Under the pieces are notes generated by a model. That model saw only the letters and a list, made by a program, of their open reading frames with translations. It was not told the DNA's origin and searched no databases. A stretch of DNA of 64,000 nt from positions 42,616 through 106,615 of the forward strand of contig JBKHFJ010000002.1 in the NCBI GenBank assembly GCA_046540255.1, read 5' to 3'. This document shows positions 5,760 to 42,071 of this stretch, piece by piece; the stretch's first letter is position 1; every line of letters begins with the position of its first letter. Source of the stretch: Methanomassiliicoccales archaeon. GTDB lineage: Archaea > Thermoplasmatota > Thermoplasmata > Methanomassiliicoccales > JAAEEP01. The position numbers and the translations under genes were made by a program.

Positions 5760-5780
5760 GTCAGGTCTCTCTCATCCATC

Positions 5781-5804
5781 AAAAAATGGGGCCATTGAGG
5801 CCCG
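5781..5804 (-). terminator. Hairpin plus T6 tract downstream of the 72-aa gene
   Basis: On the minus strand, GGGCC-TCAAT-GGCCC (5789-5803) is followed by CATTTTTT (A-run 5781-5786 on plus). It sits 35 nt after the stop of 5839-6057. Confidence 0.35.
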
Positions 5805-5838
5805 CAAGAAAGTGTGTTGTGAAGGGAGACGGAAAAGC

Positions 5839-6057
5839 CTACTTCTTCATTATCTTCATCCATCCGCCGCTCTCGTAGACGGACAGGCCCCGGCTCTTCA
5901 GGGTCTTCTCGAACTCGTCCCAGGAGACGATCTCCAAACGATCGTTGTTCCCCTTGGTAAATTGGATACCATCCGTTCCCTTCACCCTTCCGGGCTTAAG
6001 GCCCTTCTTCTGCGCGATGTTCTTGGCCTTGCCAAGATCGATTTTCTCCATCACCAA
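5839..6057 (-). CDS. Hypothetical small basic protein (72 aa)
   Basis: Clean ORF in a locally lower-GC patch with GGAGG-type (ggaggaaatg) context before the start. No domain recognised. Confidence 0.5.
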   Translation of the reverse strand: MVMEKIDLGKAKNIAQKKGLKPGRVKGTDGIQFTKGNNDRLEIVSWDEFEKTLKSRGLSVYESGGWMKIMKK

Positions 6058-6087
6058 CTACATTTCCTCCCATCAGCTATTCGGAAG

Positions 6088-6106
6088 TCTGGCCATACTG
6101 GCCAGA
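6088..6106. promoter_or_regulatory. Perfect 8-3-8 palindrome TCTGGCCA-TAC-TGGCCAGA in divergent promoter region
   Basis: Read directly from the sequence. A second overlapping inverted repeat is CATACTGG (6094-6101) / CCAGTATG (6111-6118). TATA-like runs follow at about 6133-6148 and about 6180. Confidence 0.4.
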
Positions 6107-6269
6107 CAAGCCAGTATGTAATTGATATGACCCATATATAAAATTTTTCCAATAATGACAGCTATCCAGTATCGAAATAGTATAAAAGGAGGGGGTTAAC
6201 ACCCTGAATACGCTGGACGTTCGGGGAAGAAAATGTATATCTACCGATTCCCTCTCTACCCCGAATCTC

Positions 6270-7562
6270 ATGTCCCTATTCGGCTCGTCGGGCATCAGGG
6301 GCGTAGTGGGGAAGGACATCGATCCCATGCTCGCGGTGAGGATAGGTGCCGCCGTCGGCACCGAGTACCAACGCGTGGTCACGGGCAAGGACACCAGGAC
6401 CACCGGGGATGTGCTGTTGTCGGCCCTCGTCTCCGGCCTCACCTCGGTGGGGGCCGAGGTGCACCATGCCGGCACGGTTTCCACTCCCACCCTGGCCAGG
6501 GCCAGCTCCCGCTTCGACTGCGGGCTGATGGTCACCGCCTCTCACAATCCCCCCGAGTACAACGGGGTGAAGATGTGGAACCCGGACGGCTCCGCCTTCT
6601 CCGAGGCCCAGGCCCGGAGGATCGAGGGGCTGGTGGAGGACGGTGGTTACTCCTTCTCCCCCTGGAGGGGCGCGGGGCGGTTCCACCGGCTGTCCGGGGC
6701 GGAGGAGGAGCACCTCTCGGCCGTGCTGGACAGGGTGGGATCCGCCACGGTCAAGGTGGTGGTGGACCCTGGATGCGGGGCGGGTTTTCGGATCACGCCG
6801 CTGCTCCTTCGCAAGATGGGATGCCGGGTGATCTCCCTGAACGCCCAGGCCGACGGCTTCTTCCCCGGCCGCCCCCCGGAGCCCTCCGAGGAGAACCTCG
6901 GCGATCTCATGGAAACGGTCAGGTCGACCGGGGCGGACCTGGGGATCGCCCATGACGGGGACGCGGACCGCGTGGTGGCAATCGATTCGGCCGGAAGTTA
7001 CGTGGGAGGGGACCGACTGCTGGCCCTGTTCGCCTCCCTCCACCCGGAGGTGGTGACCCCCATCAACGCCTCCATGGTGCTGGACGACATGACCAGGGTG
7101 ATCAGGACCCGCGTGGGGGACGCCTTCGTGTCCCAGACCATGAGGGAGGAGGGCGTGGACTTCGGCGGGGAGCCCTCGGGCACCTTCATCTTCTCCCGTC
7201 ACGGCTACTTCCCGGACGGGGTGCACGCCGCCGCGCTGCTGGCCAGGATGGTCAGCGAGCGTTCACTGGAGGAGATGGTGGAGGGAGTCCCCTCCTACCC
7301 CATGGCCAGGAGGTCCTTCCCCCTCCACCCTTCGGACCGTGGCAGGGTGATGGACATGATGGAGGAGGAGATGGGGACCCTGGAATGCCAGAGGCTCCTG
7401 GACCTGGACGGGTATCGGGCCGAGTTCGATGAGGGATGGCTCCTCCTCCGCCCCTCCGGCACCGAGCCGAAGCTCAGGATGACGGTGGAGGCCCGCTCGG
7501 AGGGGTCGTTGAGCTCCTTGATCGCCCTGGGCGAATCGATCGCCAGGAGGTGCCTGGGATGA
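6270..7562 (+). CDS. glmM: Phosphohexomutase (phosphoglucosamine mutase-like)
   Basis: FGSSGIRGVVG, phosphoserine loop TASHNPPEYNGVK, Mg loop GIAHDGDADR, and a C-terminal RPSGTEPKLR. The stop overlaps the start of a GlmU-like gene (ATGA). Confidence 0.85.
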   Translation: MSLFGSSGIRGVVGKDIDPMLAVRIGAAVGTEYQRVVTGKDTRTTGDVLLSALVSGLTSVGAEVHHAGTVSTPTLARASSRFDCGLMVTASHNPPEYNGVKMWNPDGSAFSEAQARRIEGLVEDGGYSFSPWRGAGRFHRLSGAEEEHLSAVLDRVGSATVKVVVDPGCGAGFRITPLLLRKMGCRVISLNAQADGFFPGRPPEPSEENLGDLMETVRSTGADLGIAHDGDADRVVAIDSAGSYVGGDRLLALFASLHPEVVTPINASMVLDDMTRVIRTRVGDAFVSQTMREEGVDFGGEPSGTFIFSRHGYFPDGVHAAALLARMVSERSLEEMVEGVPSYPMARRSFPLHPSDRGRVMDMMEEEMGTLECQRLLDLDGYRAEFDEGWLLLRPSGTEPKLRMTVEARSEGSLSSLIALGESIARRCLG

Positions 7563-18088: not shown

Positions 18089-18184
18089 GGGCTCATAGTC
18101 TAGTGGTTATGACGTCGCCTTGACATCCTCCACGGGAGGTCGAAATGGCGGAGATCCCCGGTTCAAATCCGGGTGAGCCCACCA
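18089..18184 (+). tRNA. tRNA-Val (anticodon GAC) with 20-nt intron; CCA encoded
   Basis: Acceptor GGGCTCA/TGAGCCC + A + CCA. T arm CCCGG-TTCAAAT-CCGGG. Anticodon stem TCGCC/GGCGG enclosing TTGACA[20 nt]T. The mature length would be 76 nt. Confidence 0.85.
18126..18145 (+). other. tRNA-Val intron (canonical 37/38 position)
   Basis: The intron TCCTCCACGGGAGGTCGAAA has an internal hairpin CCTCC-ACG-GGAGG. GTC pairs with the GAC anticodon, and the flanking 3-nt bulges are consistent with a bulge-helix-bulge motif. Confidence 0.7.
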
Positions 18185-38786: not shown

Positions 38787-39257
38787 TCACTTGAGGGAGC
38801 GCTGGTCCCGATCCAGAGGGTCACGGTCGACCTTTTTCCCGATCCATCCCCTGCTCACCTCCTCCTCTACCTCGCCCACGAAGGGTTTGATGTCCAGCAC
38901 CGGGGTCCCGTCGATCATGTCATGTCCCCCTATGCGGAGCCGGGACCCTTCCCTCCCCAGCAGGCGGACCACCGAGACACCGAGGGGATTGGGGCGTCGG
39001 GGGGAGCGGGTGGCGAACACGCCGTGCGGCTCCTCGTCCCATGGGGTCCTCACCACCAGCTCGTACCCCTCGGACCGATGGATGTGGAAGACGATCATGA
39101 TGTGAGAAAAACCGTCGATGTCCCTCAGCCCCTCCTGGAGTGAGGGATGGATCTCGATCTCCCCCTCGATGTCGGGGGCGAACCGGGGCTGGCGGGGCGC
39201 CTCCCCCGGGGAGAGCGGTGAGTGAACGGTCCCGATGGGGCGGTAGACGATGTCCAT
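38787..39257 (-). CDS. trmO: TsaA/TrmO (YaeB) family tRNA methyltransferase
   Basis: ..PIGTVHSP...PRQP.....IEIHPSLQEGLRDIDGFSHIMIVFHIH...GVFATRSPRRPNPLGVSVVRLL...IDGTPVLDIKP. Confidence 0.8.
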   Translation of the reverse strand: MDIVYRPIGTVHSPLSPGEAPRQPRFAPDIEGEIEIHPSLQEGLRDIDGFSHIMIVFHIHRSEGYELVVRTPWDEEPHGVFATRSPRRPNPLGVSVVRLLGREGSRLRIGGHDMIDGTPVLDIKPFVGEVEEEVSRGWIGKKVDRDPLDRDQRSLK

Positions 39258-39341
39258 GGGCCTCCATTCCCGGGGAAGTCCTTCATCTTTGCGCGGGGGT
39301 CGAAAGTATGATTAGCCGGCCGGGCCATTCGGCCAGTGCCG

Positions 39342-40130
39342 ATGAAGCTATCCGTTGTCCTCACCATCCTTAACGAGGAGAGGAATATCTCCGACTTCCT
39401 GGACACCATGATCGTGCAGGAGCAGCCCCTGGAGATAATCGTGGTCGACGCGGGCAGCAGGGACCGCACCCAGAAGATAGTGCGTCGGTACTCGGAGCGG
39501 TACCCCTTCATCAAGCTGCTGGTCAAGGGGGGGACCCGGGGAAAGAGCAGGAACTACGGGGTGTCGGTTGCCGAGGGGGAGGTGATCGCCTTCATCGACG
39601 GCGACACCATAGCCAACCCCTTCTGGGCCTCCGAGATACGAAAGTCCATGCGGGCCGGGGCGGACATCGTGGCAGGCAAGGTGATCAACATCGGGCTGAA
39701 GGCCTGGGAGGACCTGGAGCGGGTGGAGCTGTACCACAAGGGCTACGACATCTCCTTCCCCACCTGCAACCTCACCTACCGGAAGGAGGTGCTGGAGGAC
39801 ATCAAGGGCTTCGACGACTGGTTCGTCACCGCCGAGGACATCGACATGAACTACAGGGCGGTGGAGGCGGGGTACAAACTGACCTACAACCCCAAATGCA
39901 TCGTGTACCACCGGACCAGGGGGGACATATACGGATTCTTTCGCCAGGCCTTCTGGAACGGGGCCGGGAGGAAGCAGCTGACCCTGAAGCACGGGAGGCT
40001 GTGGGACTCCTACGATCCCCTGAGGATGTTCAGACAGCAGGTCAACTCCTGGTCCCTGCTCAGACTGGCCTGCGCCATCACCGGATACCTGGGCTTCAAG
40101 CTCTTCGGGGACCGCGGTCCCTACGATTGA
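39342..40130 (+). CDS. Family 2 glycosyltransferase
   Basis: KLSVVLTILNEE...IVVDAGSRDRT...AFIDGDT (DxD). ATG 39342, with GTG 39336 also possible. Confidence 0.8.
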   Translation: MKLSVVLTILNEERNISDFLDTMIVQEQPLEIIVVDAGSRDRTQKIVRRYSERYPFIKLLVKGGTRGKSRNYGVSVAEGEVIAFIDGDTIANPFWASEIRKSMRAGADIVAGKVINIGLKAWEDLERVELYHKGYDISFPTCNLTYRKEVLEDIKGFDDWFVTAEDIDMNYRAVEAGYKLTYNPKCIVYHRTRGDIYGFFRQAFWNGAGRKQLTLKHGRLWDSYDPLRMFRQQVNSWSLLRLACAITGYLGFKLFGDRGPYD

Positions 40131-40232
40131 TTCTCAGATGAGGAATATCTTGATGAAATGGATGTTCCATCTTCACCCGATAATAATATTTAAATGATAT
40201 ATAAAAATAAATGGGTTTGCGAATTGAGGGGT

Positions 40233-40532
40233 TCAATAGCCGGGATAGTTCTGATTGCTTGTCCGGTAGGCTTCTGAATTAATCCTTTCCGCTGTCTTGT
40301 AGGCATCAAAGATGCCCCAGAGCCAAACGACGAGAGCCACAATTAGGGTAATAAATAAGGTTAAAAAGGAAAAAACGACTAACAGGGGAACCCCTATCAG
40401 AATCAGCAGTCCCTTCCCAATCTGACCATTATAGATTTGCCCGGCCCCTGGAATAACGAGAGAAAGAACTGCCGCCAAACCAGAACTCTTTGTACTGACA
40501 GGCATCTGACTTGGCGCAGATTCGACTCTCAC
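40233..40532 (-). CDS. Small membrane protein (PGAGQIYNGQIGKG motif); zinc-ribbon coding sequence continues upstream without a start codon
   Basis: The track ORF starts at GTG 40532. In the same frame, upstream, it reads ..KFCKNCGEQIDARAEICPKCG. There is no ATG/GTG/TTG between the stop at 40692-40694 and 40532. An ATG at 40648 lies in the -1 frame. See findings. Confidence 0.55.
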   Translation of the reverse strand: MRVESAPSQMPVSTKSSGLAAVLSLVIPGAGQIYNGQIGKGLLILIGVPLLVVFSFLTLFITLIVALVVWLWGIFDAYKTAERINSEAYRTSNQNYPGY

Positions 40533-40818
40533 TCCACACTTAGGACATATCTCTGCTCTCGCGTCGATTTGTTCCCCACAATTCTTGCAGAACTTAGTAT
40601 TCTGCTGGTGTTGGTATTCTTGAGATCCTTCGATTTTTCCAACCCCATTTAGCGAACGGGAAAATGATTTATATTCTTTTAGATTGCATTTTCAAATATG
40701 TAAAACTGTTTCTTAATTTGGTGCTAAAAGTGGACTCAATTTTTTGATATTGGCGTAATTTAATATCCTGATTAGAAGGATATTATCTCATTATTTGGAT
40801 CACATCAAATGATTCAAT

Positions 40819-40866
40819 TCGACTGACCCGAGTTTGGAGTTCGGAAGTCGATTCACTCGGGTTTTT
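40819..40866 (+). other. Interleaved inverted repeats followed by T5 (terminator- or switch-like element) upstream of the csd gene
   Basis: TCGACT (40819-24) / AGTCGA (40846-51) is interleaved with CCCGAGT (40827-33) / ACTCGGG (40855-61), followed by TTTTT (40862-66). Confidence 0.3.
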
Positions 40867-40987
40867 ACCTATACGGTTTAAAAGATTGAAATCATATGTT
40901 TGATCGGAGAGACATCCCACTCAAGACATCGAAAATAAACCAAACATTTAATAGGTGGTCTTACCTGCACATGTCTAGGTTAATACT

Positions 40988-41179
40988 ATGGAAGGAACAG
41001 TAGTGAAATGGCTTACATCGTACGGCTTCATCAAGACCGATGAGGTCGACGACGACGTGTTCGTCCACGAGTCGGAAGTGAGATCGCAGGGCCGGCTGTC
41101 CGAGGGTCAGCGGGTTTCCTTCGAACTGGAGAACGCTCCACGTGGACCAAAGGCCGTGAACGTCGAAGTAATCGAGTAG
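40988..41179 (+). CDS. Cold-shock domain (CspA-family) protein
   Basis: MEGTVVKWLTSYGFIKTDEVDDDVFVHESEV...LSEGQRVSFELENAPRGPKAVNV aligns by eye with bacterial CspA (KWF..KGFGFI, DVFVH, EGQ.V.F). A TATA-like ATTTAATA lies at 40946-40953. Confidence 0.8.
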   Translation: MEGTVVKWLTSYGFIKTDEVDDDVFVHESEVRSQGRLSEGQRVSFELENAPRGPKAVNVEVIE

Positions 41180-41420
41180 TCGGAAGTCGGGTAAGGCGTC
41201 AGTCTTCGTTCTTCAAACTACGGATCATCCTCGAGATGATTGGTTACCGTGAGGTATACGCCTCTCGGCGGAAGAACGGCACGAGGAGAGGACGGTATGG
41301 CCCCTCTCCCCCATTCCCATATTTTACACCATCTCCCTGAAATAGAACAGATAAAACTCTATATGGTCAGGGGAATCCCGGGCCGGTGTCATCCTGAAGG
41401 TCTCGGTCATCATACCCACC

Positions 41421-42071
41421 ATGAACGAGGAGGAGTCCATAGGAACCGTTCTCGACCAGGTGGCCACGGCCATGATCTCTTCCTCCCTGGAATACGAGGC
41501 CATGATCGTGGACACCGACTCGAGGGACCGTACCAGGGAGATCGCCCAGTCCAAGGGGGCCAGGGTGATCGACGAGCCCCGCAGGGGGTACGGCAGGGCG
41601 TACAAGACGGGTTTTCAGAACGCCCAGGGGGACATCATAGCCACCCTTGACGCCGACTGCACCTATCCGGCCGAGGAGATCCCCAAGCTGTGCGGCATGC
41701 TGATCGAGGAGGAACTCGATTTCATAACCACCAACCGCTTCGGTCGCATGGAGGCGGGGGCCATGAAGCCCTCCCACCGATTCGGGAACCGGGTGTTGAC
41801 CATGACCCTGAACCTGCTGTTCGGTCTGCGCCTGAAGGACTCCCAGAGCGGCATGTGGGTGTTCCGGTCCTCCTGCCTTGAGCGGCTCGAGCTGACCAGT
41901 GATGGCATGCCCCTGTCGGAGGAGATCAAGGTGGAGGCGTTCAAGAAGGTCCGGGCGAAGGAGGTGCCCATCTGCTACCGGCAGAGGAGGGGGGAGGTCA
42001 AGCTCTCCTCCTGGAAGGACGGCAGGAGGAACTTCGCCTTCCTGTGGAGGAAGAGGTTCTCCAGGTCATAG
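41421..42071 (+). CDS. Dolichyl-phosphate-sugar synthase-like family 2 glycosyltransferase (5' end apparently disrupted)
   Basis: NEEESIGTVL...IVDTDSRDRT...LDADCTYP...SQSGMWVFR. The conserved first beta-strand (KVSVIIPT) is encoded in frame just upstream of ATG 41421 but has no in-frame start codon. ATG 41363 is in a different frame. Confidence 0.7.
   Translation: MNEEESIGTVLDQVATAMISSSLEYEAMIVDTDSRDRTREIAQSKGARVIDEPRRGYGRAYKTGFQNAQGDIIATLDADCTYPAEEIPKLCGMLIEEELDFITTNRFGRMEAGAMKPSHRFGNRVLTMTLNLLFGLRLKDSQSGMWVFRSSCLERLELTSDGMPLSEEIKVEAFKKVRAKEVPICYRQRRGEVKLSSWKDGRRNFAFLWRKRFSRS

Follow-up and report, generated by a model that had tools for sequence, protein, structure and literature searches.

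A cold-shock protein gene beside, not within, a probably imported AT-rich islet of a Methanomassiliicoccales archaeon

Bacterial cold-shock proteins (CSPs), such as CspA and CspE of Escherichia coli and CspB of Bacillus subtilis, are chains of 66-70 residues that fold into a five-stranded barrel. Most archaea lack csp genes (PMC5572242), and bacterial-type genes of this kind are found in some archaeal lineages only (PMC5572242; PMC9585477), including the Thermoprofundales, another order of Thermoplasmatota, where a gain of CspA was placed at the base of the order (PMC9585477). The published archaeal proteins, from a few psychrophilic and mesophilic archaea and from the Thermoprofundales, are by their description small stand-alone cold-shock domains (CSDs) like the one reported here. 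Small genomic islets, in turn, stand out from the host in composition, begin and end abruptly at a gene end and a promoter, are missing from a close relative and carry decaying cargo, traits that the islet described below appears to share. Here we analyzed 64,000 nt of a Methanomassiliicoccales archaeon (contig JBKHFJ010000002.1, positions 42,616 to 106,615; hereafter the window), in which a gene for a 63-residue CSD protein adjoins a trough of low GC content. The initial annotation rightly called CSDs sporadic in archaea, and it regarded 40131-41240, with the CSD gene included, as one AT-rich island acquired by horizontal transfer. Part of this holds: a segment of foreign composition exists, but a synteny check with a close relative placed the CSD gene beside the segment and not in it. 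We consider it probable that the two are unrelated neighbors, with the CSD being resident and the islet at 40131-40938 being imported together with a membrane-protein gene that is now broken.

The GC content of the window is 62.5%, and that of 40131-41240 is 42.7%. In 300-nt sliding windows over the whole 64 kb (mean 0.625, sd 0.051), the minimum of 0.327 fell in the trough, which is the deepest dip of the stretch; elsewhere no 300-nt window was below 0.447. Considering that the remaining intergenic regions have 40-71% GC, mostly 50-66%, the trough is not ordinary intergenic composition, and the sharp drop described before, with 17 G+C of 60 at 40141-40200 and 35 of 60 at 40021-40080, was reproduced exactly, as was the non-coding AT-rich sequence of about 340 nt (337 nt by our count). 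However, the anomaly ends near 40938 rather than at 41240. The interval 40131-40938 is the lowest 808-nt window, the next-lowest elsewhere having 51.9% GC, whereas the CSD gene has 55.7%. Native genes, taken from a crude open reading frame (ORF) call of the window, had a GC content at third codon positions (GC3) of 0.87 (sd 0.06). The GC3 of the zinc-ribbon membrane-protein gene inside the trough was 0.45, and that of the CSD was 0.69, at the 3.4th percentile among native 63-codon windows. As such, GC content and codon usage depart from those of the host, as in a genomic island, in 40131-40938 alone, and the deviation of the CSD is mild. A replication origin at the trough was ruled out, since we found neither repeated boxes nor a turn of the GC skew near 40.5 kb, the skew following gene orientation. 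The second-lowest GC region of the window, 5760-6275 (minimum 0.447), is a divergent intergenic stretch with a 72-residue minus-strand ORF (5839-6057).

The border of the islet was located by comparison with a 1.2-kb contig, denoted as L171, whose CSD protein is 98% identical to that of the window. L171 aligned with 40939-41792 at 93.5% identity and was collinear through the CSD promoter, the CSD, the spacer and a downstream family-2 glycosyltransferase gene, GT2b. By parts, the identity was 95% for the CSD and 93% (92.6% by nucleotide) for GT2b; values for promoter and spacer are in Table 1. Left of 40939 we found no similarity between the window and L171; the similarity resumes at ACCAAA, just upstream of the TATA-like box of the CSD. 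Since the promoter, CSD and GT2b are collinear and similar in the relative, they form a conserved native unit. The upstream neighbor in L171 is a plus-strand membrane-protein gene with a native GC3 of 0.86, while its counterpart in the window lies on the minus strand; the two proteins are only distantly related, with 41% identity in the alignment of the family and 47% over a C-terminal stretch of 30 residues. Because a 93%-identical relative carries a different, GC-rich membrane gene at this place, the segment was probably gained or replaced after the lineages split. The absence of the islet from L171 is demonstrated at the right border, and the contig ends before the left one. As L171 stops short, we used composition only to place the left border of the islet and to decide between a gain here and a rearrangement there. 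Further close relatives were found neither among the matches listed in a CSD-profile scan nor in a TrmO-anchored metagenome scan or a TrmO protein search. A compositional trough beside a gene that is sporadic in its domain is thus no evidence for import of that gene, and here the foreign border lies about 10 nt upstream of a resident TATA box.

The CSD itself belongs to an old archaeal subfamily and is both resident and under selection. Homologs of 55-70 residues formed at least 51 clusters, and every one that bears an organism name belongs to Thermoplasmata or Thermoplasmatota. In a neighbor-joining tree, 54 clade sequences were monophyletic against 78 bacterial CSPs. The clade is thus restricted to Thermoplasmatota and shares two loop deletions, and a recent import of the CSD is contradicted. 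Moreover, the GC content of the CSD follows that of its host, from 31% in genomes of 36% GC to 52-58% in genomes of about 60% GC, and is slightly below the host everywhere. Between the window and L171, the CSD differs by 8 synonymous codon changes and 1 non-synonymous one, and the gene appears to be under purifying selection. Among the matches listed, the nearest relatives outside the clade are bacterial, at 40-50% identity, so an ultimate bacterial origin is plausible, and any such transfer must have been ancient. In the genome-collection scan with the CSD profile, two Thermoplasmatota loci were among the matches listed, which were mostly bacterial DVFVH proteins and did not include the species of the window, and in the representative-library profile search multi-CSD proteins ranked on top, so the latter was uninformative for placing the clade.

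The 63-residue protein had been assigned to the CspA family, and PF00313 agrees (66.5 bits against a cut-off of 27, E = 2e-18, profile positions 4-65 of 66), as does the NCBI product name 'cold-shock protein' (MFP4196359). The AlphaFold2 model, with a predicted local distance difference test score of 89.2, has strands at residues 2-8, 12-16, 24-27, 42-50 and 53-61, which make a five-stranded antiparallel β-barrel of the OB fold. In a Foldseek search of the PDB, the top 23 structures were all bacterial CSPs with template-modeling (TM) scores of 0.77-0.90, and CspE (3i2z) superimposed with a TM score of 0.88 and a root-mean-square deviation of 1.5 Å; matches by sequence to the PDB were also bacterial CSPs, near 1e-10, and their alignments display two deletions. 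The identity to bacterial CSPs is 39-45%, with W8, the GFI core of the RNA-binding motif RNP1, the VFVH of RNP2 and the C-terminal RGP-A-NV conserved. In contrast with the bacterial proteins, three residues are lost in the β1-β2 turn before RNP1, where NxxKGFGFI becomes TS-YGFI with Phe replaced by Tyr, and two residues, including the loop Phe, are lost in the β3-β4 loop. The last Phe of VFVHF is Glu or Gln in the clade and Glu in the window. Therefore, the canonical RNP1 (K-G-F-G-F-I) reads T-S-Y-G-F-I with K-G deleted, and RNP2 reads V-F-V-H-E in place of V-F-V-H-F, in line with the altered SYGFI and retained DVFVH noted before. Across the 51 aligned homologs, Y12, G13, I15, F25, H27 and S29 are invariant, W8, T10, S11 and F14 are present in at least 90%, and TSYGFI is nearly invariant. 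Since the variant is clade-wide, the altered RNP1 is a trait of the subfamily and not decay. By homology, the protein would bind single-stranded RNA or DNA on the face made up of W8, Y12, F14, F25 and H27 and may serve as an RNA chaperone, holding transcripts in an unfolded state. The NCBIfam equivalogs scored far below their cut-offs, the best being CspE (52.5 bits against 120) and CspD (47.2 against 115.4).

The sequence upstream of the CSD is likewise of archaeal type. A TATA-like box lies about 38 nt before the ATG, an AT-rich box is present 35-50 nt before the ATG at every clade locus, and farther upstream the sequence differs from L171; we read 40939-40987 as the probable CSD promoter. 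Whereas bacterial cspA is preceded by a long 5' untranslated region, the leader here is short and the host is an archaeon, and no Rfam match to a long structured thermosensing leader of the cspA type was obtained at E ≤ 1 in 40000-41450. Thus, we picture the CSD as a resident, functional single-domain cold-shock protein that would be expressed from its own archaeal promoter. We also considered pyrrolysine read-through of the CSD stop (TAG TCG GAA GTC GGG TAA) and rejected it, because TAG ends 16 of the 55 called genes in the window and is a normal stop.

Elsewhere in the clade, the neighbors of the CSD are core genes that vary by lineage, in orders such as Pcc1-tRNA-CSD-TrmO and TBP-CSD, among others. 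In a Thermoplasmata lineage of 36% GC (L005, L006 and L007; CSD at 3846-4037 of L005), the CSD is flanked by a tRNA gene and by TrmO, the latter at a distance of 10 nt, and this locus closes an exosome/L37ae/RpoP/Pcc1 cluster. In another lineage (L182-L185; CSD at 5001-5192 of L182), it directly follows the gene for the TATA-binding protein (TBP), in a block with a MiaB-like enzyme, Csl4, RpoL and TruD. In the window, TrmO (38787-39257) is 1.7 kb from the CSD, and this proximity may be a remnant of the old linkage or a coincidence. A conserved linkage of flippase and CSD with the lineage of homolog P0015 was rejected, as the flippases are not detectably related. Three members, P0050, P0051 and L012, retain part of the bacterial-length loops (FFNRRKNYGFI, WMTGKSYGFI and GDGFRE), which suggests stepwise trimming from a standard CSP. 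The trimmed protein, specific to a lineage of Methanomassiliicoccales-related archaea, has apparently been characterized biochemically by no one.

In the case of the islet, the cargo is a minus-strand ORF of 145 codons without an in-frame ATG, GTG or TTG, so the start-less zinc-ribbon membrane gene of the initial annotation was recovered. It resembles proteins annotated as 'TM2 domain-containing membrane protein YozV' or 'zinc ribbon domain-containing protein', with which it shares the N-terminal CxxC...CxxC ribbon, the GLAAVLS..PG.GQIYNGQIGKG motif and a C-terminal W..DAY.TA..IN motif; the membrane motif G-x-G-Q-I-Y-x-G-x-x-G-K-G was found after the CxxC-x(n)-CxxC ribbon. Zn_Ribbon_1 scored 25.7 bits, above its cut-off of 25, and DUF5683 scored 23.9, below its cut-off of 26.7. 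There were 622 homologs in archaea and bacteria, the best at 53-55% identity, and the ORF keeps all 16 invariant and 21 near-invariant columns of the family alignment. The gene differs from this family in the missing in-frame start and in its GC3, which is foreign to the genome. An ATG is present at 40648 but is offset from the ORF by one base (+1), and the frameshift falls in an A5 run (T5 on the plus strand) at 40634-40638; when one A is inserted, the product reads MGLEKIEGSQEY... and aligns with homolog P0181 from residue 5. The NCBI accessions of the upstream glycosyltransferase GT2a (…358) and the CSD (…359) leave none between them. As they are consecutive in both metagenome-assembled genomes (MAGs) in which we followed the numbering, we infer that no protein was issued for the zinc-ribbon gene. 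We read the gene as a recent import that was probably inactivated by a deletion of one base.

Whether this gene could still be functional has to be weighed against its broken frame. Expression would have to begin at the ATG at 40648 and involve −1 slippage on G-GAA-AAA-T, or it would have to use an ATC start or an internal GTG at 40532. The 145 codons are open in DNA of 46% GC with the family-invariant residues intact, tRNA-Lys can pair again without mismatch after moving back by one base on the A5 run, and the adjoining GT2b also seems to have a non-canonical start. However, the A run does not form a heptamer of the classical X XXY YYZ type, the homologs begin with an ordinary Met a few residues before the ribbon, initiation at an internal codon would cost the protein its zinc ribbon, and the NCBI pipeline gave no protein. 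A working gene is, on balance, rather unlikely.

As for the entry of the islet, it would most likely have occurred by illegitimate recombination, bringing in the zinc-ribbon/TM2-like gene with its own AT-rich flanks. The imported gene would then have lost its frame by one base in the A run, or at best would need −1 slippage. A mobile-element origin was rejected: the islet had no match in phage and plasmid DNA collections, the zinc-ribbon membrane family appears in viruses at three weak loci only, and the protein had no match in PADLOC. Repeats as element ends were also rejected, given that the repeats at the islet are just 10-14 nt pairs at chance level. A structured RNA or a small gene in the 288-nt non-coding part was ruled out, since there was no Rfam match in the range and at the threshold given above, the hairpin at 40826-40861 (−16.7 kcal/mol, z = −1.4) is unremarkable, the non-coding region overall has z = −1.5, and its small ORFs have no Pfam match. 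The T-rich run CCCATTTATTTTTATA downstream of the zinc-ribbon stop may be an archaeal oligo-T terminator.

Several observations weigh against a resident CSD next to an imported islet. The comparison relies on a single close relative, whose contig ends 352 nt upstream of the breakpoint. Unlike other small islets, this one has no integrase, tRNA target, terminal repeat or target duplication, with no tRNA gene within 20 kb, and no donor was found, the best homologs of its membrane protein being only as close as stated above. On the side of the CSD, the composition is mildly atypical (GC3 in the lowest 3.4%), as it is for homologs in other GC-rich hosts, and the differing neighbors in deeper lineages indicate that the gene moved within genomes over long times. 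Even so, the reading of two unrelated neighbors remains the probable one, and the locus then is a clean small case of recent uptake of foreign DNA, followed by frameshift decay, in a core chromosomal region. Beyond correct annotation its importance is little and the finding is ordinary; the CSD and the islet are both of familiar types, and existing annotation names the CSD product a cold-shock protein.

A variant of this reading changes the role of both neighbors. At the islet, a distant homolog might have taken the place of a native membrane gene. The trimmed CSD subfamily, for its part, might be something other than a cold-shock chaperone of the bacterial type: a domain captured long ago that took on its own constitutive task in the RNA metabolism of archaea, with a binding site that is shorter or different. 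The clade lacks the RNP1 lysine and two stacking phenylalanines and stands beside Pcc1-tRNA-TrmO, TBP or Csl4/RpoL, which would suit such a role. Taken jointly, we regard the two proposals as unlikely.

It is also conceivable that the AT-rich segment is the older, maintained state, for example a regulatory or structural region for divergent promoters, and that L171 was rearranged. L171 reveals a difference and not which side is derived, and the islet offers AT-rich promoter-like sequence to both divergent genes. Nevertheless, a long-resident gene in a genome with a GC3 of 0.87 would not stay at 0.45, the gene of L171 is of native composition, no structured RNA, repeat or conserved element was found in the non-coding part, and the core promoter of the CSD is complete without the AT-rich segment. 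We therefore consider an older state quite improbable.

The model of one acquired island that includes the CSD had added a recurring motif as possible insertion scars. The motif TCGGAAGTS, with the octamer TCGGAAGT, was found at all four positions reported (6081, 40841, 41072 and 41180), where 1.46 occurrences are expected, and a count of four was reached in 8 of 100 shuffles, so the earlier caution that the count is not statistically compelling is justified. A preceding CGAGT at 0-7 nt is literally true of two copies and not of the others, and at 41072 the T belongs to both elements (CGAG/TCGGAAGT). In favor of a single island, the GC dip itself is genuine, the CSD has a GC3 lower than the mean of native genes, the 10-nt direct repeat TCGGAAGTCG flanks the CSD at 40841 and 41180, and, as described above, CSDs are rare in archaea and the closest outsiders to the clade are bacterial. 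However, L171 has the CSD promoter through GT2b and not the AT-rich part, the upstream repeat copy is in the part that is not shared, the downstream copy reads TCGGAAGTAA in L171, and the internal copy encodes an S-E-V that is conserved in the clade. With one copy upstream in the islet and the remaining two in the native unit, the copies cannot mark both ends of a single insertion. Clustering of this kind is expected by chance, as 47 other 8-mers of the window have three or more occurrences within 350 nt and, as we estimate, 64 kb should contain about 24 pairs of exact 10-nt repeats no more than 400 nt apart; the repetition of the octamer is coincidental. With an archaeal, monophyletic CSD clade whose composition tracks the host, the single-island model is very unlikely. 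The fourth copy, TTCGGAAGTC at 6080-6089, is followed directly by the palindrome TCTGGCCA-TAC-TGGCCAGA.

Since the source is a MAG and the jump in composition is abrupt, the AT-rich piece could in principle come from another organism of the metagenome through a chimeric assembly. A Logan contig from another run (L001) crosses both junctions of the trough at 100% identity, and a contig from a second run (L002) crosses the right junction at 100% identity. The gene order by accession numbering is also alike in two NCBI MAGs. Considering that contigs from two other runs match the region at 100%, one across both edges, we judge a chimera to be highly improbable. Finally, that the CSD is a defense effector like that of retron type V or Se72 and not a housekeeping chaperone is scarcely credible, because the matches (PADLOC CSD_V, 39.7 bits; NCBIfam retron_eff_Se72, 40 bits against a cut-off of 82) are weak and outscored by the CspE and CspA models, the neighbors are glycosyltransferases and core genes with no reverse transcriptase nearby, and no Rfam retron RNA was found.

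Table 1. Features around the cold-shock protein gene (positions of the window; GC, G+C content)
Feature	Position	Strand	Remarks
GT2a, family-2 glycosyltransferase, native left flank	39336-40130	+	PF00535, 78.8 bits
AT-rich islet, foreign composition	40131-40938		808 nt; 39.5% GC; left edge by composition
3' spacer of the convergent GT2a and zinc-ribbon genes	40131-40232		31% GC
T-rich run CCCATTTATTTTTATA	~40200-40215	-	3' of the zinc-ribbon stop
Zinc-ribbon + TM2/DUF5683-like membrane gene, apparently frameshifted	40233-40648	-	From translation, Pfam and homologs
Zinc-ribbon ORF	40233-40650	-	46% GC
Non-coding sequence	40651-40987		337 nt; 33% GC
Non-coding part of the islet	40651-40938		288 nt; 33% GC; hairpin and T-run at 40826-40866
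First TCGGAAGTC copy	40841-40849		In the non-coding part of the islet
Putative CSD promoter and short leader	40939-40987	+	TATA-like TTTAATA at 40947-40953; AGGT at 40977-40980; 88% identity to L171
CSD protein gene, 63 aa	40988-41179	+	55.7% GC; Thermoplasmatota-specific CSD subfamily
Second copy, TCGGAAGTG	41072-41080	+	Inside the CSD; encodes S-E-V of conserved HESEV
CSD-GT2b spacer	41180-41384	+	94.7% identity to L171
Third TCGGAAGTC copy	41180-41188		In the CSD-GT2b spacer; TCGGAAGTAA in L171
GT2b, dolichol-phosphate-mannose-synthase-like family-2 glycosyltransferase, native right flank	41385-42071	+	PF00535, 98.4 bits

The surroundings of the locus are those of a core archaeal chromosome. 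A CDP-archaeol synthase gene (CarS) in the window marks the DNA as archaeal, and the NCBI protein names read Methanomassiliicoccales archaeon, so the archaeal origin proposed before is upheld. Around the locus we found core genes for SMC/ScpA/ScpB, phosphoglucomutase, an XPD-like helicase, uracil-DNA glycosylase, a phosphoribosyltransferase and TrmO, and nearby a small glycosylation set with a flippase and the two family-2 glycosyltransferase genes. GT2a has 61% GC and a GC3 of 0.91 and is named 'glycosyltransferase [Methanomassiliicoccales archaeon]' at NCBI (MFP4196358).

At the 5' end of GT2b (41385-41423), no ATG, GTG or TTG lies ahead of the essential first strand, and its LKVSVIIPT aligns with the initiator MKVSVIIPT of the Pyrococcus furiosus dolichol-phosphate-mannose synthase (5mlz). 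The start appears to be a CTG at 41394 or an ATC at 41391. The start sequence is unchanged in the 93% relative, and changes across the gene are 16 synonymous and 9 non-synonymous; on these grounds, the non-canonical start is probably real and not an error.

The lineage of the window is very thinly sampled. Among 5.8 billion proteins, the closest TrmO was one 97% match on a 1-kb contig and the rest were at most 58% identical, several of them bearing bacterial names (Gemmatimonadales, Longimicrobiales). The TrmO-anchored metagenome scan returned only matches of at most 57% identity without common neighbors. With TAG ending 16 and TAA ending 1 of the 55 called genes, the scarcity of TAG described for pyrrolysine-using Methanomassiliicoccales is not seen here, though NCBI files the MAG in that order. 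A tRNA gene recognized by Rfam (58 bits) lies at 18089-18184; ARAGORN assigns it an odd 4-base anticodon, and it is probably an intron-containing archaeal tRNA gene.

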